Made by a program: the position numbers and the translations under genes. The notes beneath the pieces were generated by a model. It had not been told where the DNA came from and did not search any database. It worked only from the letters and a program-made list of their open reading frames with translations. A stretch of 64,000 nucleotides of DNA, taken from assembly GCA_031285625.1 (NCBI GenBank), contig JAITVV010000092.1, positions 64,001 through 128,000 on the forward strand, written 5' to 3'. Source of the DNA: Prevotella sp. (lineage in GTDB: Bacteria > Bacteroidota > Bacteroidia > Bacteroidales > Dysgonomonadaceae). This document shows, in pieces, positions 12,141 through 52,411 of this stretch (the first letter of the stretch is position 1; each line of letters begins with the position of its first letter).

Positions 12141-12176
12141 TTTTAGTTAATTTGTTAATAAAATAAAATGTCGCCA

Positions 12177-12184: not shown

Positions 12185-12227
12185 TAAAAACTGATGTGGC
12201 GAACAATATAAAACGAGCTTTATTTTA

Positions 12228-36804: not shown

Positions 36805-39800
36805 ATGATGAAGAAATCTGTACTTTTTCTTTTCATATCATTGGTTACTGTACCACTGATATTTGCCCAGGAAGCCCGGTTACTCCGATTCCCTTCCACC
36901 AATGGTTCCGAAGTTGTTTTCTCATATGCCGGAGACTTATATAAAGTCTCGATAAATGGCGGAGAAGCCAAACGCTTAACTTCACACATCGGATATGAGA
37001 TGTTTCCGAAGTTTGCTCCGGACGGAAACTCAATTGCATTTACGGGACAATATGATGGTAATACGGAAGTGTATACCATCCCTTCTGTTGGAGGTGAGCC
37101 TTTACGGATTACATACACCCCTACAAACAGCAGGGATGATATCGGCGACCGCATGGGGCCTAATAATATTGTTATGGGGTGGACTCCTGATGGCAAAAAT
37201 ATTGTATACAGGAACCGTATTAGCGACGGATTCTCAGGTCGTCTGTTCCTTGTAAATAATGAAGGCGGATTATCAAAGGGGCTACCATTGCCTGAAGGTG
37301 GATTCTGCAGTTACTCTCCGGATGGGAAGAAACTAGCTTACAATCGTGTAATGCGTGAATTCCGCACATGGAAATATTATAAAGGCGGGATGGCTGATGA
37401 TATCTGGATTTATGATCCGGCAGCAAAATCAGTAGAAAATATCACTAACAATGATGCACAAGATATTATGCCAATGTGGATTGGTGACGACATTTACTTT
37501 ATTTCCGATAGAGACCGTACAATGAATATCTTCGTATACAATACAACATCAAAACAGACATCTAAGGTTACTAATTTTACGGAATATGACGTAAAGTTTC
37601 CAAGTCACCATGGTAACATAATTGTTTTTGAAAACGGAGGCTATATATACAAGCTGGACGTCACCAATAAGCAGCCTGTAAAAATTAATATATCGCTTGC
37701 TTCAGATAATATCTATGCAAGAAGCGAGATTAAGAATGGAGAAAAGTACTTCAATGCAGCCAGCCTTTCACCTGATGGTGAACGGATAGTAGTAACAGCA
37801 CGTGGCGAGGTTTTTAACCTACCAGTAGATAAGGGTGTTACAAAAAATATTACCCGTTCGCCCGGAGCACATGACCGTGGTGCCGAATGGTCACCTGATG
37901 GCAAATATATCGCTTATATGTCTGATGCAACAGGAGAGACTGAACTTTATATGCAAGATGCAACAGGGTCCGATCCTGTACAACTGACAAAAAACAATGA
38001 TACCTATATCCGCTCTTTTCTGTGGAGCCCTGACTCTAAATCTATAGTATATACTGATCGTAAAAACAGAGTCAATTTATTAGATATCACCTCAAAGCAA
38101 AAAACAACATTGCTACAAGATCCTGTTGGAGAACCAAGAGGAGTTGTTTTCTCTCCGGATAGTAAATGGCTGACATATAGCCGCATGGGATCGAACGACT
38201 TCAATGTAGTATATGTATTCAATATTGCAGCAAAAAAAGAATATGCAATAACAGATAAATGGTATGAGTCTTATTCTCCGGCATTCAGTAAAGATGGAAA
38301 ATATCTGATATTCACTTCAGCGCGCGATTTTAATCCAATGTATGGATCAAAAGAATGGAATCATATCTATCAGGCTTCGAACGGAATATATTTAGCGCTT
38401 CTATCTAAAGACACACCGTCTCCATTCATGGAAAAAGATGCCGAAGTAAAAACAGGAGACTCCAAGAAAGCCGATGTACAGAAAAAGGACTCCACCAATA
38501 GTGTAAAAATCGACTTTGAAGGTATTGCGGATAGAATCATTAAATTACCTATTGCCACCGGATACTATTGGAGTTTCTATTCGGATGGTACGAAAGTATA
38601 TTATAATAAACAAGGGGCTGCAGCTGTCTTCGACCTCAAAACGCAAAAGGAAGAAACTATTGCAGACGGTGCATCGATACATATAAGTAATCATGATAAG
38701 AAAGCTATATTCGTTAAGAATAAACAACTATATGTTACGAATATACCTTCGGGCAAAACAGAGTTGAAAGATCCTGTTAATTTGTCCAATATGAAAATAA
38801 CAACAGACTATCCACAAGAATGGGCTCAGATATTCGATGAGGCATGGCGTGTTTACCGTGATGGTTTTTATGTAGAAAATATGCATGGTGTAGACTGGAA
38901 AGCCATTAAACAAAAATATTCAGTGTTACTACCCTATGTAAAAAACCGTTTAGATCTCAACTATATCATTGGTGAAATGATAGGCGAGCTAAATTGTGGT
39001 CATGCATACGTAAATCCGGGTGAGGTAGACCGTGCCGAAAGAATAAATACAGGTCTGCTAGGTGCTGAAATTTCAAGAGATAAGAGTGGATTCTTCAAGA
39101 TAGAAAAGATACTGCAAGGTGCATCATGGGATAAAAAACTTCGTTCTCCGCTGACTGAAGCCGGTATTGAAGCAAATGAAGGTGACTTTATTGTGGCAAT
39201 TGACGGAGTGCCTACCAACAGTGTAAAAGATATGTATTCGTTACTCACAGGAAAAGCTGGTGTACCAACGGAAATATCATTGAATAATAAAGCCCAGTTA
39301 GCCGGAGCCCGCAAAATAGTGATCAGCCCTATAGCTGAAGAGTATTCCCTTTATCATTACGAATGGGTACAGAATAATCTGAAAAAGGTAGAGAAGGCAT
39401 CCAATGGAAAAATCGGTTATATCTACATTCCTGATATGGGGCCGGAAGGCCTAAACGAGTTTGCCCGTTACTTCTATCCTCAGCTCGATAAGGAAGGGCT
39501 TATCATAGATGACCGCGCTAATGGTGGAGGCAATGTTTCGCCAATGATTCTTGAACGTCTGTCTCGCGAACCATACCGCCTGACTATGCGTCGTGGTTCT
39601 AATCGCATAGGTACAGTGCCGGATGCTGTGCAGGTAGGCCCTAAAGTATGTCTGATAAACAAATACTCTGCATCTGACGGAGACCTCTTCCCTTGGGGGT
39701 TCAGAGCTCTGGGACTTGGTAAACTTATCGGTACACGTACATGGGGAGGTATTGTCGGCATTTCAGGTTCTATGCCATTTATCGATGGAACGGATATCCG

Positions 39801-40014
39801 GGTACCATTCTTTACCAGCTATGATGCTAAAACAGGTCAATGGATTATAGAGAATCATGGTGTCGATCCTGATATCCTGATTGATAATGACCCTATAAAA
39901 GAATGGAATGGCGAAGATCAGCAATTAAACAGAGCCATCCAAGAAGTGATGAATGATCTGAAAAACAGACAACCATTAAAACCTGTGCCAGCACCAAGAG
40001 TATGGAATAAGTAG
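36805..40014 (+). CDS. Tricorn protease (peptidase S41)
   Basis: Beta-propeller repeats (SPDG), PDZ region, GYIYIPDM, DDRANGGG, catalytic SASDGD, GTRTWGG, ENHGVDPD. Confidence 0.95.
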   Translation: MMKKSVLFLFISLVTVPLIFAQEARLLRFPSTNGSEVVFSYAGDLYKVSINGGEAKRLTSHIGYEMFPKFAPDGNSIAFTGQYDGNTEVYTIPSVGGEPLRITYTPTNSRDDIGDRMGPNNIVMGWTPDGKNIVYRNRISDGFSGRLFLVNNEGGLSKGLPLPEGGFCSYSPDGKKLAYNRVMREFRTWKYYKGGMADDIWIYDPAAKSVENITNNDAQDIMPMWIGDDIYFISDRDRTMNIFVYNTTSKQTSKVTNFTEYDVKFPSHHGNIIVFENGGYIYKLDVTNKQPVKINISLASDNIYARSEIKNGEKYFNAASLSPDGERIVVTARGEVFNLPVDKGVTKNITRSPGAHDRGAEWSPDGKYIAYMSDATGETELYMQDATGSDPVQLTKNNDTYIRSFLWSPDSKSIVYTDRKNRVNLLDITSKQKTTLLQDPVGEPRGVVFSPDSKWLTYSRMGSNDFNVVYVFNIAAKKEYAITDKWYESYSPAFSKDGKYLIFTSARDFNPMYGSKEWNHIYQASNGIYLALLSKDTPSPFMEKDAEVKTGDSKKADVQKKDSTNSVKIDFEGIADRIIKLPIATGYYWSFYSDGTKVYYNKQGAAAVFDLKTQKEETIADGASIHISNHDKKAIFVKNKQLYVTNIPSGKTELKDPVNLSNMKITTDYPQEWAQIFDEAWRVYRDGFYVENMHGVDWKAIKQKYSVLLPYVKNRLDLNYIIGEMIGELNCGHAYVNPGEVDRAERINTGLLGAEISRDKSGFFKIEKILQGASWDKKLRSPLTEAGIEANEGDFIVAIDGVPTNSVKDMYSLLTGKAGVPTEISLNNKAQLAGARKIVISPIAEEYSLYHYEWVQNNLKKVEKASNGKIGYIYIPDMGPEGLNEFARYFYPQLDKEGLIIDDRANGGGNVSPMILERLSREPYRLTMRRGSNRIGTVPDAVQVGPKVCLINKYSASDGDLFPWGFRALGLGKLIGTRTWGGIVGISGSMPFIDGTDIRVPFFTSYDAKTGQWIIENHGVDPDILIDNDPIKEWNGEDQQLNRAIQEVMNDLKNRQPLKPVPAPRVWNK

Positions 40015-40028
40015 TTAGATATAAACAC

Positions 40029-40062
40029 AATAAGGCTCACATTTCAGATGGGCCTTATTTTT
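40029..40062 (+). terminator. Intrinsic terminator after tricorn gene
   Basis: AATAAGGCTCA...TGGGCCTTATTTTT. Confidence 0.75.
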
Positions 40063-40073
40063 CCACCCTTTAG

Positions 40074-40146
40074 TTTGCGTAAAAAATACGCCAAATATTT
40101 TGCTAAATAAAAAACTATACCTATATTTGCGTAATAATTACGCAAA
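40074..40146. promoter_or_regulatory. Two palindromic operator boxes (NrtR-like GT-N7-AC) bracketing/overlapping a -33/-7 promoter
   Basis: TTTGCGT-AAAAAAT-ACGCCAA (40074-40094) and TTTGCGT-AATAATT-ACGCAAA (40126-40146); TTTG at 40099 and TATATTTG at 40122. Confidence 0.8.
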
Positions 40147-40167
40147 TATTATTTAAACTAAAGTATT

Positions 40168-41025
40168 ATGAGTCATTCAAGCAACAGAAATAAAAGAGTT
40201 GAAAGCGCTCAACAAACTCTGGACATAATAAAACAAGGGTTCTATATAGTAGATGATGAAAAGATAGATATATCGCATACTATTGAAGAATCAGTAAAGA
40301 AAACAACCCTATATATTCCCGAATATTTTGATAAAAGGCTAAGCTATATCGAAAAGGAAATATCAGAGCGGGGTTTTCAAACCAATATTACAGTTAAGAA
40401 CTGTACGGCAATGGAAGCTGCAGCGGAACTACTCTCCCAAGGGGGCAAAACAGGCTGCTTAAACTTTGCTTCTGCCAAAAATCCCGGTGGCGGCTTCCTC
40501 GGTGGAGCACAAGCACAAGAGGAAAGTCTGGCCAGAGCTTCGGCTCTATATCCGACACAAATGAAATATTTCAAAGAATTCTATGAATATAACCGGGCAC
40601 AAAATACATATCTATATTCCGATTACATGATTTACAGTCCTGACGTAATATTTTTCAAAGATGACAGGGATGACCTTCTAGCTAAGCCTTATGTATTGGA
40701 TATCCTTACCAGTCCTGCTGTAAATATTGGAGCAATGATCCAAAACAACAGACTGGATGAAAAGGATGAAGCCGAACAAACAATGATGAGCCGTATGGAT
40801 AAACTCTTGTCCATATTTGTATCACAAGAGGTAGATAACCTTATTCTTGGTGCATGGGGCTGTGGTGTATTTCGCAATCGTCCTGAAGATGTAGCACGTT
40901 ACTTCGCCCATTATTTACTTAATGAGGGCAAATATGCCAAATGCTTTAAGAATATCACTTTTGCGGTATTCGATACAGGCAAAAAGCAAGAAAATATAAA
41001 TGCCTTTACACAAACTTTCAAATAA
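40168..41025 (+). CDS. TIGR02452 / DUF2263 microbial poly(ADP-ribose) glycohydrolase-like macrodomain protein
   Basis: LNFASAKNPGGGFLGGAQAQEESL catalytic loop; IYSPDV; LILGAWGCGVFRN. Confidence 0.92.
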   Translation: MSHSSNRNKRVESAQQTLDIIKQGFYIVDDEKIDISHTIEESVKKTTLYIPEYFDKRLSYIEKEISERGFQTNITVKNCTAMEAAAELLSQGGKTGCLNFASAKNPGGGFLGGAQAQEESLARASALYPTQMKYFKEFYEYNRAQNTYLYSDYMIYSPDVIFFKDDRDDLLAKPYVLDILTSPAVNIGAMIQNNRLDEKDEAEQTMMSRMDKLLSIFVSQEVDNLILGAWGCGVFRNRPEDVARYFAHYLLNEGKYAKCFKNITFAVFDTGKKQENINAFTQTFK

Positions 41026-41089
41026 CTCCTCTCCCACTGGCACGTTGAAATGCATCATATAGCATCTTTTCTGTCAGTGGGATTATTTC

Positions 41090-43234
41090 TTACTCATTCA
41101 GAGCATGCATTAACCGATACAGGCATATTAATAAATGAGCATCCTCGATCTGATCTATACTATTCATCAAATCATCAAAATTCACCCATACTAATTCTTT
41201 TGCAGGTCTGTCTAAACATACCACATAAGGATACACTTGTTCGGTAGTAATACCCACACTCGGAAAGTATTTTTCCCCCAATTTATAATATTGCTCTATC
41301 CTACTCTCTCCTATATGCATTTCAGAAATATATTGGTTCAGACAGGCCATATTCTCAATATCTTTTGGTAAACGCTTTGCTGGAACGGTAAGAATTGTGC
41401 TATTACCACTCAAAAGTTGAGGAACAGGTAAGTCCCTAATTTCTAATCCTATATATATCTGCTCTCCTTTTTCGTATACAGGGAGGGTTAGTAATGTGTT
41501 AGAGCTGACTTTTTCAGGATATACGTACTCCAATATGGAATGGCTTCCTGTAATATCCGTTTCAGCAAAATATCCCCTCCCAATCTTTAAAAATCCAGCT
41601 CGTTCATGGCTTTCAACGAAGACATTTTTCTTTATGGAAAGTAAGTCGGATGCGTTCGCAACAGGAGTAATGAAATCATTATATTGTATCTGGATCTTTT
41701 CTCCCAGCCATTTAGGCAACTGAACGTTTTGCTTATGGAGTAAGTGATAGATATTAAGTTCTAAGCGAGCCTCAACCAAAGTTCCAGTTTGAGCATTATT
41801 TAATAACTGTATTGCATCATATTGATGAATAAATCCTGATTCTTTAAATCCTGAAAAACCATTTTTGAGAACTCTTGATTTTAGTGGCATCTCTTTCAAT
41901 TCAATAAAGTTTGAGGATACCTTTTCGTTGATGCCTCCGGGAGAAGTATAATAATTCAGTGAATGTATTATAGAAGTATATGTATCTTTGCTTATACCAA
42001 ACCTTTCGGCTAAGACAGCTTCGATATTCTCTGTATTCCCAACTGTAATTCCTTCAGGGATATATCCGCTAAAGTATTTATTATCAATCACAGGACTATC
42101 TGTTTTTACATTTACCAAAGGACGCGGATAGCCATGCTTTGCCAAGACTATGATTTTATTTCCATCTTTATAATAAGGTATAAAATCGCTTACAGGATGA
42201 GGCCTCTCAGCAACATCATAAATATGTCCCGTCTCTGTATTCTTATAAGATATATAATTCAGATAGGGCAGTTCTGAAAGAGGTAGATGACGTACAAGTT
42301 GTACTTGTTTTCCGGCTTTAATCTTCTCTCCGGCAATTAAATAATTTGTAGGAGGGAAACCTATTTCCTGGCCCTTTATATCATATAATCTGAACTGATT
42401 TTTATACCTGTTACTTATTATCCACGAATTATATATTGGGGAGGACAGTATTACCCGCAAACCCAGATTTTGAAAAGATTCTTCGAATTCTCTTTGTGTG
42501 AGATATGCATATTCTTCCTGAAGCTCAATATCCCAATTTGCATAATAATCTTTTCTACGTATAAATTCTACAGCATCAGAATAGAATATTTGGAATAAAC
42601 GAGTCTTTTTATTTTGCGATTTTAGTTCTTTTATGGGGAAGCCTCTTTCTTGAAATGGAGCTAATGATCTGGCTGTCTTGGCAAACAATAACAATAAGTC
42701 ACAATCATTAGGCCTGCCCTCTCGATCTTCCAGAGACAATTCAATGACAACTTCCTGTTCTTCCGGCTTTACAAAGTCGCGTACAACCAGGATACCTCTT
42801 TCTTTCAGCAGGTCAACCTGGCGACGCAGGGTATTTAGCGCACGATTAGTGTCATAGCCATTGTAAGAAGTAATATGATGTATTGCAGAGCAATTAAAAA
42901 ATCCGTTTACAGAATTATCCTCAAAACTATCCAATTTCTCACCATCATCTATCCTGAAAGATAGATTGGGCAACTGGTAAGTCCTTTGAGCTATTTCTAC
43001 CATCTTAGGGTTAATATCTACTCCAATAATATTTAACTCAGGAAATAATTCAGCTAAGATGGCAGAGCTTGTACCCGATGCCATACCAACATCTACAATC
43101 GTATTTTCTTTTTCCGGCTCAAAAAATGTACTGGCAGAAGCCACTTTTTCTATGGATATGGCATCCATAGCATCCAGATATTGCTGATAACTTTGCTTAT
43201 CTCCCCTGTCTTGATCAGTATAGTTTGTATTCAT
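41090..43234 (-). CDS. Class I SAM-dependent methyltransferase fused to two degenerate Nudix-like domains
   Basis: IVDVGMASG, GVDINPKMV, SAIHH, GILVVRD; C-terminal YYTSPGGINE and YFPSVGITTE resemble the post-Nudix-box loop of ADP-ribose pyrophosphatases; start MNTNY at 43234. Confidence 0.7.
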   Translation of the reverse strand: MNTNYTDQDRGDKQSYQQYLDAMDAISIEKVASASTFFEPEKENTIVDVGMASGTSSAILAELFPELNIIGVDINPKMVEIAQRTYQLPNLSFRIDDGEKLDSFEDNSVNGFFNCSAIHHITSYNGYDTNRALNTLRRQVDLLKERGILVVRDFVKPEEQEVVIELSLEDREGRPNDCDLLLLFAKTARSLAPFQERGFPIKELKSQNKKTRLFQIFYSDAVEFIRRKDYYANWDIELQEEYAYLTQREFEESFQNLGLRVILSSPIYNSWIISNRYKNQFRLYDIKGQEIGFPPTNYLIAGEKIKAGKQVQLVRHLPLSELPYLNYISYKNTETGHIYDVAERPHPVSDFIPYYKDGNKIIVLAKHGYPRPLVNVKTDSPVIDNKYFSGYIPEGITVGNTENIEAVLAERFGISKDTYTSIIHSLNYYTSPGGINEKVSSNFIELKEMPLKSRVLKNGFSGFKESGFIHQYDAIQLLNNAQTGTLVEARLELNIYHLLHKQNVQLPKWLGEKIQIQYNDFITPVANASDLLSIKKNVFVESHERAGFLKIGRGYFAETDITGSHSILEYVYPEKVSSNTLLTLPVYEKGEQIYIGLEIRDLPVPQLLSGNSTILTVPAKRLPKDIENMACLNQYISEMHIGESRIEQYYKLGEKYFPSVGITTEQVYPYVVCLDRPAKELVWVNFDDLMNSIDQIEDAHLLICLYRLMHALNE

Positions 43235-43389
43235 TGTATTATATCCATTAAAAAGTAACAAAAGTAACACATTTTATATGCTTTTTTACTGTTACTTTTT
43301 CCCTTTTATCAAATCAAGAGCTCTTTATATAAGACAATTTGCATTGGAAAAACTCTTTATACTCTGTAGTTTTAGGGCCGACTTTTTTT

Positions 43390-44124
43390 TCACTTATGAT
43401 AAGTCAAATTATCCAAATTATATTCTTCCCATGGAATAGCCAGCTTTATCGGAGAGGCAGTAATAAGATCAAGAACTATTTCACTTAAGTTTACCATTGT
43501 TACTACACCCAAATCATTTTTAGCTGCTATTTCGAGGAATATCCTCAGTTCAGATATATAGCTAGCAGCATATTCTTCTGTTTCTTGAGGTATGATATCA
43601 CCATAATTGGCCAAAAGGAGCTTAACTTCATTATCTGTCAGCCAATTTACCATACCATTTCCAAGATATGCATGCAAACTGCCAGACTCCGGAAAACGGA
43701 GTGCTTCCAAATATTTTAAAGCAACAGACTTATAATCCATTTTGTCAAAATCGACAAAATAGCTTAACAACCGTTTACCTAACCTGAAATGAGGAGTAAA
43801 TAAGGCGCATTCAGAAAAAACAATAAGTTGAATAATCCTACTCAGATCTTCAATAGCTTGTATATGTATATTTACAAAAGTATCCTGATTGGTAGCATGC
43901 TTATATATAGAATGAATCTTAAAACCGGCATCAAAATCCCTGCATAGTTTTAAAATATTCTCAATTCTGTGACCTCTATTTGTTACATTATCCCAAAGAA
44001 TGGACTTACCCAGACATGAATTAAAATAATGTTGAAGGATCCGGCCTTCCCCCATCAAGTCTGGCACTATTATATTGTGAAATTTTTTACTATCGAATAA
44101 ATGTAATGTATTGCAATCCCCCAT
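43390..44124 (-). CDS. Hypothetical protein
   Basis: 244 aa ORF with own TATATTTG element at 44142-44149 (minus); no motif recognised. Confidence 0.65.
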   Translation of the reverse strand: MGDCNTLHLFDSKKFHNIIVPDLMGEGRILQHYFNSCLGKSILWDNVTNRGHRIENILKLCRDFDAGFKIHSIYKHATNQDTFVNIHIQAIEDLSRIIQLIVFSECALFTPHFRLGKRLLSYFVDFDKMDYKSVALKYLEALRFPESGSLHAYLGNGMVNWLTDNEVKLLLANYGDIIPQETEEYAASYISELRIFLEIAAKNDLGVVTMVNLSEIVLDLITASPIKLAIPWEEYNLDNLTYHK

Positions 44125-44161
44125 AATGTTTGATTATAATACAAATATACATTCTAGTTTA

Positions 44162-45175
44162 TTAGTTTACAAGCCAGTTACGAATAGTTAGCATTTTACC
44201 TTCAATCAATCTGTCTATTTCATCTACTGCTTTTTCGAAACGCTCGTCCCAATTTCCCATAATTTCTGTATAAGGGATATCATGTTCATTTAGTGTCTCA
44301 CGGTGTGATGCATCCAGCCTGTTCCGGCTTTCTTCATCCATTCGGGTTCCATCCTGAACAAACTTTACATCATTGCTTAGATATAAATACAAATTAGCTC
44401 TATTGGCATCATATACATGATTATCAAGCATTAAATCTTCGTTGAAAGTAAAACGTCCATATGATTTTGTAATATGAATATCCGTATCGATTATAATAAG
44501 CGGGGAATCTTTTATCTCTGATAACCGAATACGTTTGGCGTGCTCGTCAGCTACCAGATATAAATCGTTAATAGAGAAATCATTCGAATCGGCTATAATA
44601 TCCCTACCTGCCTCAAAAACAGCTATTGCATTATAATGCTTAGCCAATTTTCCGGTCAATACAGTTTTGCCTGTCGATTCGGTTCCCAAAATAACAACCT
44701 TGATAACCATATCAGGCTTTACAGCATCGGGAAGGTATTGCCAATAAGAAAACAGGTCGGAACGTATCTTAGATGCTGCAACCGGAACCATATTCCTTTC
44801 CATATCGAAAAGGATATGTTTTATTCCTATATATTCAGCTATATACTCCCCATAAGGCTCTGAGGTGATAACAGTTGCATAATCTGGAAAATATTCCTTA
44901 AAAACTTCTGTCCATTTCTTTGAAACGTCCCGTGATGATTCGGAAGAATTGGGCAAATCAGATTCTTTATAGTTGAAAGTAATAATTTCGATGTTAGGAA
45001 TATCAGCAAAAGTTTTCTCAATCCAGTTTTCACGAACTTTTGCCGGTATATTTTCCTTATCGCTTGCACAAACAAGTACAGATAAAAAGTCGACCTGTGT
45101 CAAAGCAAAGCGAATCATAGCTTCATGCCCTTTGTGAAAAGGCAGGAATTTACCAAATACAAAACCTTTATTCAT
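44162..45175 (-). CDS. nadR: NadR-like bifunctional NMN adenylyltransferase / ribosylnicotinamide kinase (no HTH)
   Basis: FGKFLPFHKGH (HxGH), SASKIR-like AASKIR, Walker A GTESTGKT, IIDTD, FVQDGTR; overlaps pnuC stop. Confidence 0.88.
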   Translation of the reverse strand: MNKGFVFGKFLPFHKGHEAMIRFALTQVDFLSVLVCASDKENIPAKVRENWIEKTFADIPNIEIITFNYKESDLPNSSESSRDVSKKWTEVFKEYFPDYATVITSEPYGEYIAEYIGIKHILFDMERNMVPVAASKIRSDLFSYWQYLPDAVKPDMVIKVVILGTESTGKTVLTGKLAKHYNAIAVFEAGRDIIADSNDFSINDLYLVADEHAKRIRLSEIKDSPLIIIDTDIHITKSYGRFTFNEDLMLDNHVYDANRANLYLYLSNDVKFVQDGTRMDEESRNRLDASHRETLNEHDIPYTEIMGNWDERFEKAVDEIDRLIEGKMLTIRNWLVN

Positions 45176-45791
45176 TTGCCTGCTTTTTATACCAGTTATA
45201 CAATCCATAAGATGCAATAAATAGCAATACCAGATATTCCAATGCTATGAAATAGATGCCTTGCTGATAATACAGCACAATGCAAACGACATCATTTATC
45301 ACCCACAAAGCCCAATTCTCAAACTTCTTCTTAGCCAGCAGGATAGTGGCTACAATACTGATAACCATCACAAACGAGTCTGCATAAGGAAAAGCGGAAG
45401 CTTCTTTAAAATACTCAGGCAATGTAATATGTATGTTACCGATAAAATATCCGGTCAATACTGTTCCTGCTATGATAATCAGGGCAGTCAAGAACAGCCC
45501 TTTGGGTCTCAGCCTTGTAACTTTACTTTCTTCTTCTCCATATTTCCATCTGTACCACCCATATATCGAACTAAAGAAGAAAATAACCTGCAAAAACATA
45601 TTTGCATATAGCTGAACCTGAAAGAAAATGACAAATAAAAATAGTTCATTGACAATACCACTGGGCCATGTCAGTATATTTTCCCTTGATGCCCAATAAA
45701 CACACAACAAACCGAATACTGTACCTATCAGTTCAGCATAGCTAAGTGGGTAGCCCAGTATTTCGAGAAATATATTTTGTATGTCAAACAT
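45168..45791 (-). CDS. pnuC: PnuC-family nicotinamide riboside transporter
   Basis: Multi-TM; SIYGWYRW, PYADSF, KKFENWALW, YGLYNW motifs; coupled to nadR. Confidence 0.92.
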   Translation of the reverse strand: MFDIQNIFLEILGYPLSYAELIGTVFGLLCVYWASRENILTWPSGIVNELFLFVIFFQVQLYANMFLQVIFFFSSIYGWYRWKYGEEESKVTRLRPKGLFLTALIIIAGTVLTGYFIGNIHITLPEYFKEASAFPYADSFVMVISIVATILLAKKKFENWALWVINDVVCIVLYYQQGIYFIALEYLVLLFIASYGLYNWYKKQANE

Positions 45792-45811
45792 ATGTTAGTC
45801 ATTAAGAAAAC

Positions 45812-45910
45812 TGTCATTCTGAATGCAATGAAGAATCTCGACCCTCCGGACACGAGAGTTTGGCTCCGCTTCGCTCTGCCGATTTTCAATTCACTTCGTT
45901 CAACATGACA
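45812..45910. repeat. REP-like palindromic element, long form copy 1
   Basis: TGTCATTCTGAATGCAATGAAGAATCTCG...TTCACTTCGTTCAACATGACA; near-identical to 50471-50570. Confidence 0.85.
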
Positions 45911-45917
45911 AAGAGAA

Positions 45918-47909
45918 CTACAACGTATACTTCAAAGATAAATAGAAATTCACCGGTGCTTGTACAAAATACTTCACTGTATTATCATAATCCACATAGG
46001 CATTATTGTAATACTTGGTGTTGGTAATATTGTTTACATAAGCATTCCATTCCATATGTTTGTAAGTATAGCCGATACGTGCATTCAATAATACATAACT
46101 ACCAATTGTTTCAGAATTTGCAAAGTCAATATATGACTTATCCTGATAACGCGCAGATAGTGATATATCAAATTTATCCTTTTGCCATACTACTTCCTGA
46201 TTTACAATAAACTTTGGAGTAAAAATAGGACTGAATTTCTCCCCCTGTTCCTTTATCCGGCTGTGGTTGTACGACGAATTATTGATAAATGCAAACATTG
46301 GAACAGGCTGATAACTGACAGACAATTCTGCTCCCGCCCTATAGCTTTTATCTACTTTATTGGTTAGTGCAAGCCCATTCGGCCCAAAATTACCGTTCAA
46401 TACAATTTCATCTTTGAAGTCCATATAATAAAGATTGGCAGCCAGATTAAGATTCCGGCTTCTGTATCTGAATCCCAATTCATTATCGACAACATATTCA
46501 GGCGAATCTATTACGATTTCAGGTTTTCCGTTTTCATCAACCGTAAGATTCTCATTTCCACCGAACATATCTGTGCGGGTAGGTTCCCTGCCAATACGCC
46601 CTATGCTGTAATATACCTCCATATTATGAGCAGGTTGGTAACTGATACCTGCTTTCGGATTAAAGAAATTCCAGTTTAACTTATCCAGAGGTACATCCCC
46701 TTTGTAATCGAAGTTCGCATGACGATATTGTATATCAGCATAAGCCGTGAAATTGCTGAAGTTATAATCTATCTTCGTATAAACACTAATCTCTTTTTTA
46801 TAGCCGGTATTGCGAAAGTCCTCCCCTGCTGTTCTTTCACTTCCGATGTGCCTGCGGTTGTAGGTATTGGCAAACACTCCTGTTGTCCATTTTACATTCT
46901 TCCAGCTATGGATATAATTAGAATACAGACCGAAAAGATTCGAGCGAAAGGCATAGTTATAGATCTCATCGGTGGAAGGAAGCCCTATGTAATTATTTAT
47001 ATCAAAATCGTAGTTGCCATTCAGATAAGTATAGTAAGCTGCTGATTGCAACAATGAGTTTTCGCCCAATCTGTATATATTATGCAATTGTATCATAGCT
47101 TGTGTAAATTCATCTTTTTCATCTTTGGTATTCGCATTTGTTCTCCTGTCTTTTCGGATAAGCGAGTCCGATACCCCCAGCCATGCCATATCATTCTGCT
47201 GATGTCCGGCAATAATATTCACTTTCCATACAGCTTTATCGGTAAACCAAGCCCCGCTTGCAAACAAAGACTGTGAATGATTTCCCGAATGATGTTTATA
47301 CCCATCCGAATATACTTCCGACAGCCGGGCATAGAATGCCTTGTTATTTACTTCTCCCGATTGTGTTTCTGCATAAGCCCTCAAGCTATTGTATGAACCA
47401 TACCCGATACCGAAAGTCGTCTGTGCCGGATTCCGCAAATTAGGTGAAAATAATTGCACACTTCCGGCATAACTGGCAACTCCGTTCTTGGTAGTACCTA
47501 TTCCCCGCTGTATCTGTACACGGTCGAGCGAATTGAATATATCGGGATAATTGGAGAAATAAGCGCCCTGGTCTTCGGGTTCATTCAGGGGAATACCATC
47601 CAGAGTGATGTTGATACGTGTCTGGTCCATTCCCCTCATTCTGAAATAAGAATAGCTCTGTGTGCTTCCTGCATCGGAATAAGCTGTTATTGAAGGTGTT
47701 TCCATCAGAATAAAGGATGGCTCCTGTCCTATCGATTTCACCTTTAATGTCTTCATTTCAATATTCTGATAGCTGACCGGAGTCGTCTTATTCGCCTGAT
47801 AAGTTACAACAACTTCCTGCAAGCCAATAGTATCAGGCTTGTTTATCTCCTGTGCACATATTATATGAACTAAAAAAGCGAAAGTAACGAGTAGTAATAT
47901 TCTGTACAT
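45918..47909 (-). CDS. TonB-dependent receptor (vitamin-uptake type) upstream of pnuC-nadR
   Basis: LQEVVVT, SDAG...RMRGMDQTRINITLDGIPLNEPE, VQIQRGIG, C-terminal QAPVNFYLSLKYTL. Confidence 0.9.
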   Translation of the reverse strand: MYRILLLVTFAFLVHIICAQEINKPDTIGLQEVVVTYQANKTTPVSYQNIEMKTLKVKSIGQEPSFILMETPSITAYSDAGSTQSYSYFRMRGMDQTRINITLDGIPLNEPEDQGAYFSNYPDIFNSLDRVQIQRGIGTTKNGVASYAGSVQLFSPNLRNPAQTTFGIGYGSYNSLRAYAETQSGEVNNKAFYARLSEVYSDGYKHHSGNHSQSLFASGAWFTDKAVWKVNIIAGHQQNDMAWLGVSDSLIRKDRRTNANTKDEKDEFTQAMIQLHNIYRLGENSLLQSAAYYTYLNGNYDFDINNYIGLPSTDEIYNYAFRSNLFGLYSNYIHSWKNVKWTTGVFANTYNRRHIGSERTAGEDFRNTGYKKEISVYTKIDYNFSNFTAYADIQYRHANFDYKGDVPLDKLNWNFFNPKAGISYQPAHNMEVYYSIGRIGREPTRTDMFGGNENLTVDENGKPEIVIDSPEYVVDNELGFRYRSRNLNLAANLYYMDFKDEIVLNGNFGPNGLALTNKVDKSYRAGAELSVSYQPVPMFAFINNSSYNHSRIKEQGEKFSPIFTPKFIVNQEVVWQKDKFDISLSARYQDKSYIDFANSETIGSYVLLNARIGYTYKHMEWNAYVNNITNTKYYNNAYVDYDNTVKYFVQAPVNFYLSLKYTL

Positions 47910-48017
47910 TTTTATAATAATTAACCGAAAGTTTTTAATAATATTTTCGAATTATAACATACTATTGCTGTTATAAATACAAAATAATAAATAGCTCTGC
48001 GAGCTTAATTTGAGGTG

Positions 48018-48025
48018 CAAAGATA
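48018..48025 (-). promoter_or_regulatory. -7 promoter element TATCTTTG for the TBDT-pnuC-nadR operon
   Basis: Reverse complement of CAAAGATA about 110 nt upstream of ATG 47909. Confidence 0.7.
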
Positions 48026-48043
48026 ATTAATAATGAATATTAA

Positions 48044-48121
48044 CCCCTCCCGACTTCCCCAAAAGGGAGGTGAAAGATATATCGATTTAATCTCCCCTCC
48101 TTTTGGAGGGGTTGGGGGAGG
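48044..48121. repeat. GC-rich REP-like doublet (CCCCTCC..GGAGGGG type) overlapping the 3' end of the AdSS-like gene
   Basis: Two imperfect inverted arms CCCCTCCCGACTTCCCCAAAAGGGAGG and CTCCCCTCCTTTTGGAGGGGTTGGGGGAGG in AT-rich context. Confidence 0.7.
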
Positions 48122-49229
48122 TGCTCCAATCAGGCCTGTCTTTCATTTCCACTCCATTCACCATTTGCAATAAATTACTATCACCCAGTTCTTTCAGAAA
48201 GGTATCCTTATCTTTCAGTTGGTCGAGGCAAGTGAATATGAGAAACTTATTACTGTCCGGATTGTATATCCTGTCGCAATTGATAGCATGTTCCACCAAT
48301 GAAGCATCAAAAGGAGCAGTGCGGAAAATACCCTGCCAGTCGTTTTCCTGATTTGATTCCGTTGTGGTATTTATAAGTTCTATCTGTTTGTTATCGGGAA
48401 AAGGTCCGTTGCCATGCCGTGTCTGATAACAACGGCTGATATAATAAGTATTGATTACCTCGTCTTTCAATGTACTCTTGCTAATAATTTCCATTGCATT
48501 TTGCGATGTGGTATTGCTTCTTGTCACATGAGGAAAGAAACCGAAGTGCTGGTCTAATAATATACCTTGCGATCCTTCAAATACAAAGTCTTTATACTTT
48601 GCTGCAATATCATCTATTGTTGCAACAGTTACAAAGCTTCTGTAAAATTCAAGGCTTTCTTCCCATGATTCCATTGCTATTTCCAATTCACTCTCATAAG
48701 TGATTTGAGAACTCATGTTCAATGTCTTTACCCTATCTTCATAATATCTTTTGATAAAGGACATTTTAGTTTCAAATACATACGGAGTTTTTAAATCGTT
48801 TGTGTAAAGGTTGAAGAAGTCTTCGTTTCGTTGTAAAGTTGTACCGAATCCAACCCCGCATGTACCATGTCCGGTAATCATAGACAAAGCCCTGTTGAAA
48901 GCTAAATCATAAGGTGTAGTAAGCATTGCCATTGGATGAACATAATATGCTTTTCTTTCTATTGCTAACAACTCAAGAGCTTTGTATTCATTCAGAAAAG
49001 CAATAGGAAAGACCGTGCAATGCTGGCTTATATAGGTTGATGCACCCTGAAATGCTCCAGCTCCGAACTGTGAGAATATATGCTTCTTTCCATCTGCAGA
49101 AATGGCCGTATGTCCGCATTGATGCCCTCCTGAAAAGCGAATGACAAGCGCTTCAGGGTGAGACAGGGAATGGACTGCCTGCCCTTTCCCTTCGTCTCCG
49201 AAACCTGTGCCTAATACTATGTTAATCAT
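48087..49229 (-). CDS. Divergent adenylosuccinate-synthetase-like ligase
   Basis: GFGDEGKG, RFSGGHQCGHT, GTCGVGFG, FEGSQGILLD, PHVTRS, YQTRHGNGPF, TCLDQL; canonical TTGRxR loop replaced by WQGIFR; 380 aa. Confidence 0.85.
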   Translation of the reverse strand: MINIVLGTGFGDEGKGQAVHSLSHPEALVIRFSGGHQCGHTAISADGKKHIFSQFGAGAFQGASTYISQHCTVFPIAFLNEYKALELLAIERKAYYVHPMAMLTTPYDLAFNRALSMITGHGTCGVGFGTTLQRNEDFFNLYTNDLKTPYVFETKMSFIKRYYEDRVKTLNMSSQITYESELEIAMESWEESLEFYRSFVTVATIDDIAAKYKDFVFEGSQGILLDQHFGFFPHVTRSNTTSQNAMEIISKSTLKDEVINTYYISRCYQTRHGNGPFPDNKQIELINTTTESNQENDWQGIFRTAPFDASLVEHAINCDRIYNPDSNKFLIFTCLDQLKDKDTFLKELGDSNLLQMVNGVEMKDRPDWSTSPNPSKRRGD

Positions 49230-49275
49230 AATTTTAAAAGAAATAGTAGATTACCTAAAAAATATTCATGTATTT

Positions 49276-49346
49276 TGTCATACTGAGTGCAACGAAGTAT
49301 CTCGACCCTATTGGACACGAGATGTTTCACTCCGTTCAACATGACA
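49276..49346. repeat. REP-like palindromic element, short form
   Basis: TGTCATACTGAGTGCAACGAAGTATCTCG...CGAGATGTTTCACTCCGTTCAACATGACA; same ends as the long copies. Confidence 0.8.
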
Positions 49347-49350
49347 AACA

Positions 49351-50280
49351 CTATAATGTGATTACCGATGACCCGTTATTATACCTATCAGGAACAAGCG
49401 AATCTATTTTAGCAAGAGTGGTTGAGATATTCGAAGCAGTGGCATTGTCAAATGATTTTAGTATCTTATCCATATCCGCACCATTAATTACCGATACAGT
49501 TGTACCAATCAGTTCAGCAATATTATCACTGTCTTTCAAAACCAGAAACCGTTCGCCTAACAACTTTTTCCACTTATCTTCTATATAACTTGACTCATAG
49601 CTACCATCCTCCACATGAATATGGAATACATGGTATTTTTCCAATGCAGCATTATACAGTTGTTCTGCCGTATAATTAGCCGGAGTTTCTTTCATACCCA
49701 TCATATTTTGGATAAAGCGTCCGTTATAATCCGGATGAAAAGATTCGTCCCCAATAGTAAATAAAAAACCTTTCATCCCTCTTTTTTCGTATGCATCGGT
49801 AGATGTATGATATCCCGCCACATACCATGCCAATGGATATGATTCCATCGCCTGTCCTCCACCGCAACCTTCAATATAAATATCGGCAAGGCTATCTACC
49901 AGCTTAGTCGTTTCCTGTTCAAACTGTCCAATCTGTAATGGAACATTATCTGATATATGGTCTCCTATTGCACCGAAACATATCTGTGCATCATTTACCC
50001 CGTGCAGAATAAGTGTATCCATCATCTTCGGAAATTTGTTCTGTATCAGGTGATAAGGTATCTGACCCATAGAACCAGTTACATCTACAAATACCATAAC
50101 CGGTACACTATACGGATGGTCTGCAGAGTCTCGGCATTCACGCATCCCATTTTTCAGCAATGCCGGATTCATTGTATCTTTCAGCGAGTCTGAGAAAATC
50201 TGGTTTGCAGATTTTGAACCATAGTTACGGGCACTTGTTACTGCGTTGTACGTTCTTGATGAATAATGTCCTGTTCCCAT
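49351..50280 (-). CDS. von Willebrand factor A (vWA) domain protein
   Basis: MIDAS FVDVTGSMG, EGCGGGQAMESY, FTIGDE; Ser/Tyr-rich N-terminus MGTGHYSS. Confidence 0.85.
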   Translation of the reverse strand: MGTGHYSSRTYNAVTSARNYGSKSANQIFSDSLKDTMNPALLKNGMRECRDSADHPYSVPVMVFVDVTGSMGQIPYHLIQNKFPKMMDTLILHGVNDAQICFGAIGDHISDNVPLQIGQFEQETTKLVDSLADIYIEGCGGGQAMESYPLAWYVAGYHTSTDAYEKRGMKGFLFTIGDESFHPDYNGRFIQNMMGMKETPANYTAEQLYNAALEKYHVFHIHVEDGSYESSYIEDKWKKLLGERFLVLKDSDNIAELIGTTVSVINGADMDKILKSFDNATASNISTTLAKIDSLVPDRYNNGSSVITL

Positions 50281-50332
50281 AATCTTTAATTTTTAGAAAG
50301 TTTGTAATCAGTTGAAAAGTCCTTAAATATAA

Positions 50333-50410
50333 TTTACGTATTATTTACGCAAACAAAGTAAGAAATAAATATTCAATCTAACAAATAAATTTGCGTATAT
50401 TTTACGCAAA
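50333..50410. promoter_or_regulatory. Two palindromic operator boxes (NrtR-like) upstream of vWA-AdSS operon
   Basis: TTTACGT-ATTATTT-ACGCAAA (50333-50353) and TTTGCGT-ATATTTT-ACGCAAA (50390-50410); same motif as 40074-40146. Confidence 0.8.
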
Positions 50411-50470
50411 TAAAAATAAATAATAGATTATGAGATAATTACAAATAAAAAATAAATTGTATCGAAAGTT

Positions 50471-50570
50471 TGTCATTCTGAATGTAATGAAGAATCCCGA
50501 CCCTCCGGGGCACGAGAGTTTGGCTCCGCTTCGCTCTGCCGATTTTCAATTCACTCCGTTCAACATGACA
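50471..50570. repeat. REP-like palindromic element, long form copy 2
   Basis: Near-identical to 45812-45910, same orientation, both followed by AAGAGA. Confidence 0.85.
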
Positions 50571-50581
50571 AAGAGATAAAT

Positions 50582-50609
50582 AAAAAAGCCCTTGAATTAT
50601 CAAAGGCTT
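50582..50609 (-). terminator. Intrinsic terminator after rdgB
   Basis: AAAAAAGCCCTTGA...TCAAAGGCTT gives a stem plus U-tail on the minus strand. Confidence 0.7.
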
Positions 50610-50630
50610 CATTATCATATAGTAGTATTT

Positions 50631-51212
50631 CTATATCTTTTTCAGAAATTCACACAAAGCTTTTGTAGCTAAAGCACGGTGACTAATATTGTTTTTTACA
50701 TCCATACCCAATTGGGCGAATGTTTCAGTATATCCATCAGGTTGAAAGATAGGGTCATAACCAAAACCGGCGCTACCCTTTTCTTCTGTGATAATAACTC
50801 CTTCTATCTTCCCTTCAAACATATATTCTTTACCATCCAAAATCAGCGCAATCACAGAGCGGAATTGGGCTTTTCTGTTTGTAATGCCATCCAACTCTTT
50901 CAATAGCTTCTTCATATTGGCTTTAGCATCGTGGTCTCCACCTGCATAACGAGCCGAATATACACCCGGAGCACCATTGAGGGCATCTACTTCGAGTCCG
51001 GTATCATCACCGAAGCAGTCATAACCGTATTTCTCTTTAACATAGCAGGCTTTGATTAAAGCATTTTCCTCTAATGTCTCGCCCGGCTCTTCTATATCTT
51101 CGTAGCAACCAATATCTTTCAGGCTAAGTATATCGAAATTTTCTCCCACAACTTCTTTTACCTCTTCCAGTTTATGGGCATTGTTGGTAGCAAATACTAA
51201 TTTTCTTTTCAT
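50631..51212 (-). CDS. rdgB: Non-canonical purine NTP pyrophosphatase (RdgB/HAM1)
   Basis: [44 protein letters not shown]. Confidence 0.96.
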
Positions 51213-52411
51213 TTCTCCTCCAATGAATTATAGGCTTCCAAAGCTTTTTCCAATACAGTAAGCGCCTTGCCTAAATCTTCCTTTTTCAGCACATAAGCTA
51301 TACGCACTTCGTTCTTACCCAGTCCGGGAGTTGTGTAAAAGCCAGATGCCGGAGCCATAAAAATAGTTTCTCCTTCATATTCAAAATCAGACAGACACCA
51401 TGCACAGAACTTATCAGCATCATCTACCGGTAGGCGCGCTACGGTATAGAAAGCACCCATCGGTATAGGTGAATACACCCCTGGAATACGATTCAGCCTG
51501 TCGATAAGGAATTTTCGCCTTTCCACATATTCCTCATACATATCCTGTATATATTCATGCGTCGCATCCAGTGAGGCTTCCGCAGCTATTTGACCGATAA
51601 GTGGCGGACTAAGACGAGCTTGGCATAACTTCATCACCGTTTTGCGAAGCTCTTTATTTTTTGTTATTAATGCACCGATACGGATACCGCACTCACTATA
51701 TCGCTTCGAAACGGAATCGATAAGCACAACATTTTCTTCTATTCCAACCAGATGGCAAGCTGAGACATAAGGAGAGTTGGTATATATAAAATCGCGGTAT
51801 ACTTCATCAGAAAACAGATATAAGTCGTATTTCTGCACCAGATGCTTAATCTGATTCATTTCTGCACGTGAGTATAAATAGCCTGTGGGGTTATTCGGAT
51901 TACAAATCAGAATACCTTTTGTGCGTTCATTGATAAGCGCTTCAAATTTTTCTACAGGTGGCAATGCAAAACCCTCTTCAATAGTAGATGATACGGTACG
52001 GATAACAGCTCCTGCCGATGCTGCAAATGCCATATAATTAGCGTAGGCCGGTTCGGGAACAATAATCTCATCACCCGGATCAAGACAAGCCAGGAAAGCA
52101 AAAAGAACAGCCTCAGAACCTCCCGTTGTTACAATTATATCATCCGGCGATACACTTATATTGTATTTTGTATAATAACCCACAAGTTTTTCCCGATAAG
52201 AACGGTAACCGTCACTCGGGCTATATTCCAATACTGTACGGTCTATATTTCGTATCGCGTCAAGGGCCTCCTCTGGAGTTGGCAGGTCTGGCTGACCTAT
52301 ATTCAGATGATATACTTTCAGTCCTCTTGCTTTTGCAGAGTCTGATAACGGAGCCAATTTCCTGATTGGAGAATTCGGCATATCTATTCCTCGTTGCGAA
52401 ATTTGTGGCAT
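51209..52411 (-). CDS. PLP-dependent aminotransferase class I/II (aspartate aminotransferase-like)
   Basis: [42 protein letters not shown]. Confidence 0.93.

Follow-up and report, generated by a model that had tools for sequence, protein, structure and literature searches.

An NrtR-type regulon proposed to link ADP-ribose hydrolases, NAD salvage and a vWA-adenylosuccinate-synthetase-like module in a Prevotella sp. genome

The window analysed here, a stretch of 64,000 nucleotides from a Prevotella sp. genome (contig C37, positions 64001-128000; the genome, G000 below, has 96 contigs, 4.84 Mb and 37% G+C), carries four copies of one palindromic box, two at the promoter of a gene for a bacterial-type poly(ADP-ribose) glycohydrolase (PARG) and two at the promoter of genes for a vWA protein and an adenylosuccinate-synthetase-like (AdSS-like) ligase. 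We propose that these boxes are operators of an NrtR-family repressor that is encoded 13 kb beyond the window end and controls three transcription units, a reading that we put at about 85% probability and that is supported by the form of the boxes, the genes beside them and their fate in related genomes. The sequence-only reading of this DNA had predicted an NrtR-type regulon with its regulator gene outside the window, and a Nudix + NrtR_WHD gene indeed stands there, beside a third pair of boxes that fit the NrtR motif form.

Operator pairs, their proposed regulator and their promoters

The pattern TTTRCGT-N7-ACGCMAA occurs at four sites in the window (positions 40074, 40126, 50333 and 50390), exactly where the sequence-only reading had placed them, with centre-to-centre distances of 52 bp in the PARG pair and 57 bp in the vWA pair. 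A pattern search lists six matches for these four sites because two of them, as perfect palindromes, are counted once per strand; in 100 shuffles the expectation was 0.01, and none of them reached six matches. Allowing two mismatches to TTTGCGT-N7-ACGCAAA added no further site in the window. When a position weight matrix (PWM) built from the sites was run over the whole genome, six matches scored 27.8-33.1 and the next best only 15.8; among the six is a third pair, at C37:140980 and C37:141032, 52 bp apart and 13 kb past the window end. At all six sites the operator has the form TTTGCGTA-N5-TACGCAAA, a 21-bp palindrome with a GT-N7-AC core, the symmetry and core given for most NrtR motifs in the passages drawn on (Rodionov et al., 2008; PMC2330246). 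The boxes noted earlier are thereby confirmed, at a frequency far above chance.

The third pair lies upstream of a gene (nrtR, C37:140103-140801) whose 233-aa product combines a Nudix domain (PF00293, 5.3e-18, residues 16-139) with an NrtR-type winged helix-turn-helix (PF21906, 4e-23, residues 156-216); a regulator therefore exists and is probably autoregulated. The protein matches SoNrtR (PDB 3gz5) at E 1e-32 and has the two-domain build of the NrtR family. Its score of 170.4 bits against NCBIfam NF050029, the equivalog of ADPR-responsive repressors, does not reach the cut-off of 400 and marks it as a member of the family outside that equivalog. It heads an operon of 12 same-strand genes: nrtR, a 296-aa pseudokinase, two NADAR genes, a 258-aa gene, ARH, DUF4291, Macro, ARH, KptA/Tpt1, ARH and a 148-aa gene.

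An initial thought that the operator might be an SOS/LexA box was dropped after the NrtR gene was discovered. G000 has five NrtR-family genes in all, and one paralogue (C86:44049-44729, 39% identical) is preceded by three GTGCGT-N7-ACGCA boxes (C86:43853-43966, 53 and 40 bp apart). These are of a different, GCGT-N7-ACGC type, none reaches 12 with the present matrix, and this paralogue probably has a separate regulon.

Directly upstream of the nrtR boxes, on the same strand, are genes for a WYL-WCX regulator, a 121-aa protein and a UPF0167 protein (L001 9061-11096 = C37:141061-143096). The WYL-WCX gene ends ~10 bp from the distal nrtR box, and WYL and Nudix regulators are described as alternatives in ADP-ribosylglycohydrolase systems in the passages drawn on (Iyer et al., 2022; PMC9503650), so that this or another factor could bind the boxes, with NrtR a mere passenger. 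We consider this very unlikely, as tblastn with the WYL protein found nothing in the box-bearing loci of the related genomes G023, G024 and G004, whereas box pairs stand next to nrtR in G004, G010 and G023, nrtR of G024 has one strong and one weak box beside it, and the motif itself has the NrtR family form.

In each promoter box 1 is adjacent to a TTTG, and box 2 covers an element like TAnnTTTG, an arrangement that fits repression. Bacteroidetes promoters follow the consensus -33 TTTG / -7 TAnnTTTG, to which we take the layout at PARG to be equal (Table 1): box 1 ends 4 bp before the TTTG, and box 2 overlaps the -7-like element and ends 21 bp before the ATG. An alignment of eight promoters gives the same order in each, that is box 1, an invariant TTTG, a spacer and box 2. 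In a 52-bp class (PARG and nrtR of G000, nrtR of G004 and G023, kptA of G024) the spacer ends in TATATTTG, its TTTG is shared with box 2 and the pairs fit five helical turns; the 56-57-bp pairs (vWA of G000, vWA of locus L049 from a related metagenome-assembled genome (MAG), and the TonB-dependent receptor (TBDT) gene of G023), which have the common spacer end CTTTGTTTGCG, do not fit, and no cooperative looping is proposed. At each of the three promoters in G000, one NrtR dimer would sit beside the -33-like TTTG, another would cover the -7-like element together with the transcription start, and bound NrtR would block RNA polymerase until released by ADP-ribose or a close derivative. A sigma-70 promoter scan found 42 promoters against 43.2 expected, the organism using another promoter type, and no Rfam family matched window positions 38000-53000.

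The vWA promoter of G000 resembles the TBDT promoter of G023, which suggests that vWA and the AdSS-like gene were inserted between an NrtR-controlled promoter and the TBDT gene. Mobile sequence is also close at hand: a miniature inverted-repeat transposable element (MITE)-like repeat, present in long (~106 nt) and short (~60-80 nt) forms, accompanies two of the three promoters, and the copy that separates the nrtR boxes from the start codon of nrtR (L001 ~8868-8950) pushes the operator ~180-250 bp upstream. As the PARG and nrtR promoter regions are moreover alike over ~75 bp, the boxes might be regarded as remnants of a duplicated promoter cassette or of a mobile repeat that play no regulatory role. 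We find this scarcely credible: the inter-box spacer diverges between species, whereas the palindrome half-sites and the TTTG are invariant; the boxes are separate from the repeat, which is missing from contigs of sequencing runs X4 and X5 (both join 50440 to 50576, without the copy at 50441-50575), and at least the X4 contig still spans the boxes; and the sites stand upstream of functionally related genes in distant Bacteroidota. The contigs of runs X2-X5 represent related strains and show gene presence and order.

Predicted transcription units and their cargo across the genus

The proposed NrtR regulon would consist of the PARG gene as one unit, vWA and the AdSS-like gene as a second, perhaps continuing into TBDT-pnuC-nadR, the 244-aa gene and the methyltransferase gene, and the 12-gene nrtR operon as a third. 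Its output would be the removal of ADP-ribose from macromolecules, the uptake of nicotinamide riboside, which would then be converted to NAD, and a reaction carried out by the vWA protein, the AdSS-like ligase and the pseudokinase, which we refer to as the triad. In G023, the TBDT orthologue (78-80% identical) lies directly behind a box pair, and the pnuC and nadR orthologues sit in the nrtR operon.

Boxes and regulator go together in the genus. NrtR orthologues 73-90% identical were found in nine of the 24 other same-genus genomes drawn, and a site with a PWM score of at least 14 lies in the flank of eight of these nine, as clear pairs at 86-90% identity and as decayed boxes at 73-75%; when loci from 20 more distant members of the family were examined in this way, one had such a site. 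In a pattern scan of five genomes with an orthologue, box pairs stand at nrtR in G004, G010 and G023, one strong and one weak box in G024 and a lone two-mismatch box in G016, and G023 and G024 have additional pairs elsewhere. Pairs with 0-1 mismatches are present in G004, G010, G023 and G024, all of which have a close NrtR orthologue. Five 99-100% complete genomes without an orthologue contained no paired site and none with 0-1 mismatches; their seven isolated two-mismatch matches were not above a reversed-pattern control.

What stands behind the boxes varies from genome to genome. In G023, one set of boxes is followed by TBDT, ARH, DUF4291, a NADAR-like gene, Macro and ARH, and another by nrtR, NADAR, NADAR, KptA and then pnuC-nadR. 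G024 has three such groups: KptA, ARH, Macro; SPFH, a 306-aa gene and the long methyltransferase; and nrtR, Sir2, NADAR, GNAT/YoaP, ARH, Macro. In G004 the box pair heads a 12-gene hydrolase operon, and the order behind the boxes is nrtR, radical-SAM, NADAR, GNAT/YoaP, ARH, ARH, DUF4291, Macro, a 114-aa gene, KptA, ARH, a homologue of the 148-aa gene and Macro. PARG, present in six of 35 genus genomes, has the same box pair at the same distance upstream in G043, lies inside the nrtR operon in G007 and G014, and in G015 is flanked by ARH and Macro genes ~2 kb downstream of nrtR, with which it shares the strand; for the PARG gene of G023, no box was seen within 1.5 kb. The sequence-only reading had joined PARG with vWA and the AdSS-like gene through one regulator, and this link holds in relatives of the genome as well. 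Judged by boxes and gene order, the genus keeps one predicted promoter cassette and rearranges the genes behind it. The novelty is that the NrtR regulon in this genus consists mostly of ADP-ribose 'erasers' (PARG, NADAR, ARH, Macro) plus KptA, with highly plastic content, and such eraser-rich, species-varying content under a fixed cassette is more in keeping with a response to ADP-ribosylation or NAD cleavage than with simple vitamin homeostasis.

The second gene of the nrtR operon also varies within the genus, being a HemN-like radical-SAM gene in G004 (L134 11028-12389), Sir2 in G024 (L133 8580-9407) and the J-domain pseudokinase in G000 (L001 7115-8005); the G023 operon has no such variable second gene, and the GNAT-YoaP gene recurs in G004 and G024. 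In two lineages, an SPFH gene and a gene for a 306-307-aa protein without a Pfam match stand behind NrtR boxes (L133 15268-17207; L065 7164-9108), which recalls the nrtX-nrtY pair, of unassigned function, in the passages drawn on from Rodionov et al. (2008; PMC2330246).

Table 1. Predicted operators, genes and repeats of the window, in window coordinates
Feature	Position	Strand	Evidence
Predicted NrtR box 1, PARG promoter	40074..40094		TTTGCGTAAAAAATACGCCAA; PWM 30.3; columns conserved in the eight-promoter alignment
Putative Bacteroidota-type core promoter, PARG	40099..40129	+	TTTG (40099-40102), 19 bp, TATATTTG (40122-40129)
Predicted NrtR box 2, PARG promoter	40126..40146		Perfect palindrome TTTGCGTAATAATTACGCAAA; PWM 33.1
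Bacterial-type PARG, 285 aa	40168..41025	+	PF10021 1.3e-49; TIGR02452 1.8e-84, 283.4 bits vs cut-off 50; Thermomonospora (T.) curvata PARG 3sig, E 1.6e-49
Class I S-adenosylmethionine methyltransferase, 726 aa, long C-terminal extension	41090..43270	-	Methyltransf_11/25/31 ~1e-11, residues 53-173
244-aa protein, no known family	43390..44124	-	No match in Pfam, NCBIfam, PHROGs, PADLOC or PDB sequences
NadR-type nicotinamide mononucleotide (NMN) adenylyltransferase / ribosylnicotinamide kinase	44162..45217	-	AAA_28 2.8e-23 + cytidylyltransferase-like
PnuC nicotinamide riboside transporter	45168..45791	-	PF04973 6e-55
MITE-like repeat copy, TBDT-pnuC gap	45812..45916		blastn 95% over 106 bp to copy at 50455-50590
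TBDT	45918..47909	-	Plug + barrel
Terminator-like hairpin, weak T tail	48044..48068	-	Just past AdSS-like stop codon
AdSS-like (PurA-superfamily) ligase, 380 aa	48087..49229	-	PF00709 3.3e-44, model positions 1-316 of 416; phrog_1211 2.7e-59
vWA protein, 309 aa, with D66-x-T68-x-S70 like a metal-ion-dependent adhesion site (MIDAS)	49351..50280	-	AF2 model + Foldseek; phrog_2971 4.5e-45
Predicted NrtR box, promoter-proximal, vWA promoter	50333..50353		TTTACGTATTATTTACGCAAA on + strand; PWM 27.8
Predicted NrtR box, distal, vWA promoter	50390..50410		Perfect palindrome; PWM 31.6
MITE-like repeat upstream of vWA promoter, outside operator	50455..50590		57 blastn hits in genome
Macrodomain protein, 177 aa	59150..59683	+	76% identical to G004 Macro protein (PF01661 2.4e-49)

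The genes of the window itself are listed in Table 1. The calls made from the letters alone for PARG, TBDT, PnuC, NadR, RdgB and the AdSS-like ligase all held in family profile searches, and PARG contains the stretch PGGGFLGGAQAQEE (GGG..QEE), in line with its place in the bacterial-type family, whose catalytic signature is GGG-X6-8-QEE. Of the fusion of a methyltransferase to a pseudo-Nudix domain that had been described, the methyltransferase part stands; Pfam gave no match to residues 181-726, and the Nudix-like fold of the C-terminal extension is a structural lead, coming from ESM Atlas structure rows in which the tail compared with Nudix clusters at TM 0.72-0.77, normalised by the Nudix row. 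Orthologues of the long methyltransferase lie behind NrtR boxes in G024 and after vWA-AdSS-like-NADAR in L049. The macrodomain gene noted 9 kb away is present at window 59153-59668, with no PWM match nearby, and its orthologues close NrtR-controlled operons in G004 and G024. The adjacent rdgB, also noted earlier, was rejected as a part of the system, since its position beside these genes is peculiar to G000: the vWA gene is absent from the other 34 genus genomes searched.

A PDB sequence search found nothing below E 0.08 for the 244-aa protein, nor for the 258-aa and DUF4291 proteins of the nrtR operon. Counted from its first start codon, the nadR frame overlaps the end of pnuC by 50 bases, and the true start probably lies deeper inside the frame. 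In run X2, one contig passes from 43437 straight to 45511, so that a related strain is without the 244-aa gene and nadR as well as the 3' portion of pnuC (window 43438-45510). No PADLOC model matched the triad, PARG, DUF4291 or the proteins of no known family, the sole hits being the methyltransferase N-terminus (mad2) and the WYL protein.

The vWA, pseudokinase and AdSS-like triad

In G000 the triad, made up of a J-domain pseudokinase, the vWA protein and the AdSS-like ligase, is split over two loci. Its pseudokinase gene comes directly after nrtR in the nrtR operon; a separate copy of the operator stands before vWA and the AdSS-like gene, at a distance of 27 kb. Among 35 genus genomes, vWA and the pseudokinase were each found in one, and both times it is G000. 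The related MAG locus L049 has the triad split in the same way, its two operons convergent within 7 kb, and L050 has the order vWA-PARG-AdSS-like.

The vWA protein matched none of the Pfam vWA models, but the call stands on other grounds: all 30 homologues compared have D66-x-T68-x-S70, in which Thr replaces the first Ser of DxSxS, and the AF2 model (pLDDT 86.3) matches integrin beta I-like domains in Foldseek (E 1.8e-6, probability 1.00), as expected of a vWA fold with a MIDAS. For the pseudokinase, Pfam DnaJ scored only 0.0025; its HPD (H32-P33-D34) is invariant in 28 sequences and lies between helices 21-31 and 39-57 of the model, from which we take a J-domain to be present. The C-terminal part of the same model (pLDDT 95.4) matches the folds of PAK, ASK1 and a DnaJ-PKA chimera at E ~2e-6. 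Its catalytic loop reads H-x-G-I-N-P, and S-F-Y-H stands in the DFG place; as the catalytic Asp residues of active kinases are absent, we call it a pseudokinase or atypical enzyme.

The triad is widespread. Homologues of vWA form 1592 clusters at E ≤0.001, 232 species-level genome loci were confirmed, and the counts that follow refer to the best 80 of these. The AdSS-like gene directly follows vWA in 71 loci, and a pseudokinase homologue directly precedes vWA in 67; near vWA, ARH is found in three loci, NADAR in two, and PARG and the long methyltransferase in one each. Missing neighbours are partly due to truncation because some of the loci are short contigs. At a PWM score of at least 16, which no chance site in the whole G000 genome reaches, there are 18 sites in 12 of the 80 loci (1.33 Mb), all of them upstream of the triad or between nrtR and the triad, and three Niastella loci carry 52-bp pairs. 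A Pfam tally of 128 flanking open reading frames from 25 diverse loci gave 130 families, mostly unrelated; the recurrent specific ones were ARH (3), NAMPT (3), Nudix + NrtR_WHD (3) and Prs-like (2).

Individual loci place the triad beside NAD salvage genes: nrtR-prs-nadV-pseudokinase-vWA-AdSS-like in Pedobacter (L117), nrtR-prs-nadV-triad plus an ARH gene in Mucilaginibacter (L121), and nrtR, boxes, nadV, vWA and AdSS-like in L114. In L065, a Bacteroidota MAG, nrtR, a box, SPFH and a 307-aa gene precede the triad, and directly after it (12148-14439) comes a 763-aa protein in which an isochorismatase (nicotinamidase-like) domain is joined to TCAD9 and a dual-specificity phosphatase. Three Dyadobacter loci (L052, L086, L107) carry a 21-bp palindrome, G(G/A)CGTAG-N7-CTAC(G/A)CC, 150-195 bp upstream of the triad, which could be a lineage-specific operator or the terminator of the preceding gene; other palindromes also lie upstream of the triad in Saprospiraceae loci.

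Phages carry the triad as well, and PHROGs includes all three proteins (phrog_3043, phrog_2971, phrog_1211). tblastn found vWA in 219 phage records, all at <60% identity, of which 200 are from Mycobacterium, 10 from Rhizobium, 6 from Vibrio and 3 from others (one Mycolicibacterium, one 'Bacteriophage', one uncultured). In phage Bread the order is 'serine/threonine kinase', vWA homologue, 'PurA-like adenylosuccinate synthetase', with the kinase matching the pseudokinase profile at 1.5e-23. Rhizobium phage RHph_Y65 has a phosphoribosyltransferase-like gene and an NMN adenylyltransferase/Nudix gene ~3-4 kb from vWA/AdSS-like, and Vibrio phage Va1 a NADAR homologue (43% identical) 1.1 kb upstream. 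In the best 80 of 154 confirmed IMG/VR contigs, the AdSS-like gene is adjacent to vWA in 76 and the pseudokinase in 53, and no boxes were found; two IMG/VR contigs hold Prs-like, Macro, vWA, AdSS-like, NADAR and NAMPT-like genes.

The AdSS-like protein is a ligase with a remodelled acceptor site and a short C-terminus, as its alignment indicates. It keeps the P-loop GDEGKG and the GGHxxGHT, EGxQG and TRHGxGP motifs, and phage records annotate it as PurA-like, so that it might be thought a second adenylosuccinate synthetase that boosts AMP, with vWA and the pseudokinase as unrelated neighbours. This we judge improbable. G000 already encodes a normal 421-aa purA (C52), relative to which GTTG(K/R)G has become GSCGVG, MKSD has become TCLD and TGRPRRCGW, which we take from residue roles in E. 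coli PurA to be the aspartate-binding loop, has become WQGxFR, and ~90 C-terminal residues are missing; the protein scores 132.6 bits against a cut-off of 402 for the PurA equivalog NF002223 and 48.1 against 300 for PurZ; and the order with vWA is kept in the great majority of both the genome and the viral loci counted above.

We put forward, as a tentative proposal that is possible more than probable, that the triad proteins jointly catalyse a reaction, so far undescribed, within the NAD+/ADP-ribose economy. The ligase might spend GTP on activating a nucleotide related to NAD breakdown, one that NAD cleavage or the removal of ADP-ribose leaves behind, and couple this nucleotide to an acceptor that is not aspartate, with the vWA and J-domain proteins bringing in a protein client or DnaK; the reaction would be switched on through NrtR in bacteria once ADP-ribose is present and, in phages, would aid survival against NAD-depleting or ADP-ribosylating defences. 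If so, large phages of mycobacteria, rhizobia and vibrios would carry the triad beside NAMPT, Prs-like, NADAR and Macro genes, and a triad split over two loci under one operator would be natural evidence that selection keeps its co-expression. The probable inducer and the partners (NAMPT, Prs-like, NADAR) narrow the search for the triad's substrate and bear on phage NAD+ reconstitution.

The effector of NrtR and relation to known systems

Several observations weigh against the proposed regulon or its effector. The promoters of the 56-57-bp class, that of vWA among them, are without a clean -7 element TAnnTTTG. The AdSS-like and TBDT genes are separated by 177 bp that hold a weak terminator-like hairpin and TATCTTTG; in view of this gap, the hairpin and the MITE-like repeat before pnuC, we therefore leave read-through from the vWA promoter into TBDT-pnuC-nadR as a possibility. 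Among the best 80 triad loci, only six have an NrtR gene within 10 kb of vWA and 68 have no site matching the present PWM. Finally, the best solved relative of this NrtR is the arabinose-sensing BtAraR (PDB 5bs6) at E 3.6e-53, against 1e-32 for the ADP-ribose-sensing SoNrtR, and the SoNrtR phosphate contacts Asn43 and Lys76 are replaced by Ile39 and Glu70 (Phe36 and Leu67 in BtAraR).

These last two points allow for a regulator that, like Bacteroides AraR/XylR, senses something other than ADP-ribose, be it a pentose, ribose 5-phosphate, ADP-ribose 1''-phosphate or cyclic phosphate, or O-acetyl-ADP-ribose. KptA and Sir2, which make ADP-ribose derivatives, occur in these operons. In addition, Bacteroidetes NrtR groups are listed as pentose regulators in the passages drawn on (Rodionov et al., 2008; PMC2330246). 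We nevertheless regard such an effector as a minority possibility, to be kept in view: a pentose gene was found neither in this regulon nor in those examined in relatives, and three arginines of the ligand site are kept. By the contact residues that the passages drawn on give for the two solved proteins (PMC4666351), Arg37 corresponds to SoNrtR Arg41 and BtAraR Arg34, Arg89 to SoNrtR Arg95 (chain residue 98; the number is taken from the alignment offset) and BtAraR Arg86, and Arg92 to SoNrtR Arg98, which binds ADP-ribose, where BtAraR has Gly89. The Nudix box is moreover near-canonical (G51-x5-E57-x7-R65-K-L-x-E69-E70, with Glu70 a part of it) and therefore suits a diphosphate ligand. ADP-ribose or a close derivative, to which the content of the regulon points, is in our view the probable effector. 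BtAraR of Bacteroides thetaiotaomicron shares the two-domain fold family and tandem operator sites with our NrtR; unlike it, AraR binds L-arabinose and controls arabinose genes (PMC4666351, in the passages drawn on).

NrtR regulons are already known, and the operator itself is an ordinary though clean result. As in the regulons described in the passages drawn on from Rodionov et al. (2008; PMC2330246), for example Streptomyces nrtR1-draG and Shewanella nrtR-prs-nadV, we find a Nudix domain with a winged helix-turn-helix, a 21-bp GT-N7-AC palindrome, sites upstream of the regulator's own operon, tandem sites at one promoter, and NAD salvage genes (pnuC-nadR, prs-nadV) and ADP-ribosylglycohydrolases as targets. 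The difference is that the Bacteroidetes branches given there serve pentose use, the only NAD regulon listed for the phylum being Cytophaga hutchinsonii nrtR-prs-nadV and nadE, whereas the regulon here is dominated by at least seven ADP-ribose hydrolases and the triad.

The regulon also offers a testable form of the anti-ADP-ribosylation systems that Iyer, Burroughs, Anantharaman and Aravind predicted (2022; PMC9503650). In the passages drawn on, these systems have an ADP-ribosylglycohydrolase (ARG) core, a Nudix or WYL repressor, Macro/NADAR add-ons and vWA 'chaperones', vary in gene content between close genomes and are predicted to counter viral ADP-ribosylation; G000 has three ARG genes, nrtR, an adjacent WYL gene, vWA, Macro and NADAR. 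Those systems were chosen for having no ADP-ribosyltransferase (ART) or sirtuin genes, unlike the present operons, in which KptA (an ART fold; in the same operon in G000) and, in G024, Sir2 occur. They are listed from actinobacteria, planctomycetes and proteobacteria, not Bacteroidota, and these passages name no adenylosuccinate-synthetase-like gene.

Phages are known to reconstitute NAD+ by NARP1 (Adps + Namat), NARP2 and NARP3 (PnuC + NadR), according to the passages searched (bioRxiv 10.1101/2024.02.11.579819; PMC13464706). The likeness to the triad loci lies in the Prs-like plus NAMPT-like, or PnuC plus NadR, genes beside vWA/AdSS-like in bacteria and phages. Unlike them, the NARP pathways have no vWA, pseudokinase or AdSS-like component named in those passages, and the neighbouring prs-like genes, called by family only, may be Adps or true Prs. 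The word 'adenylosuccinate' occurs 0 times in the texts, supplements aside, of PMC9503650, PMC7824862, PMC13464706 and bioRxiv 10.1101/2024.02.11.579819, and at the level of titles and abstract starts we found no description of the triad. With 232 species-level genome loci and 154 viral contigs confirmed, and with 219 phage records, it is both widespread and unstudied, and is now tied to the NrtR signal.

For its individual members there are closer relatives. The AdSS-like ligase belongs to the same superfamily as PurA and phage PurZ and keeps their phosphoryl-transfer motifs, but it differs from both in falling below their equivalog cut-offs and in its changed aspartate loop and short C-terminus. 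The TerY-P triad, which consists of a vWA protein, a kinase and a PP2C phosphatase, resembles the present one in having a vWA protein and a kinase-fold protein in one operon; here, however, there is no phosphatase, the kinase fold lacks the catalytic Asp and bears a J-domain, and the third gene encodes a PurA-superfamily ligase. What G000 adds to these comparisons is a triad that is split and yet, as its operators suggest, co-regulated.

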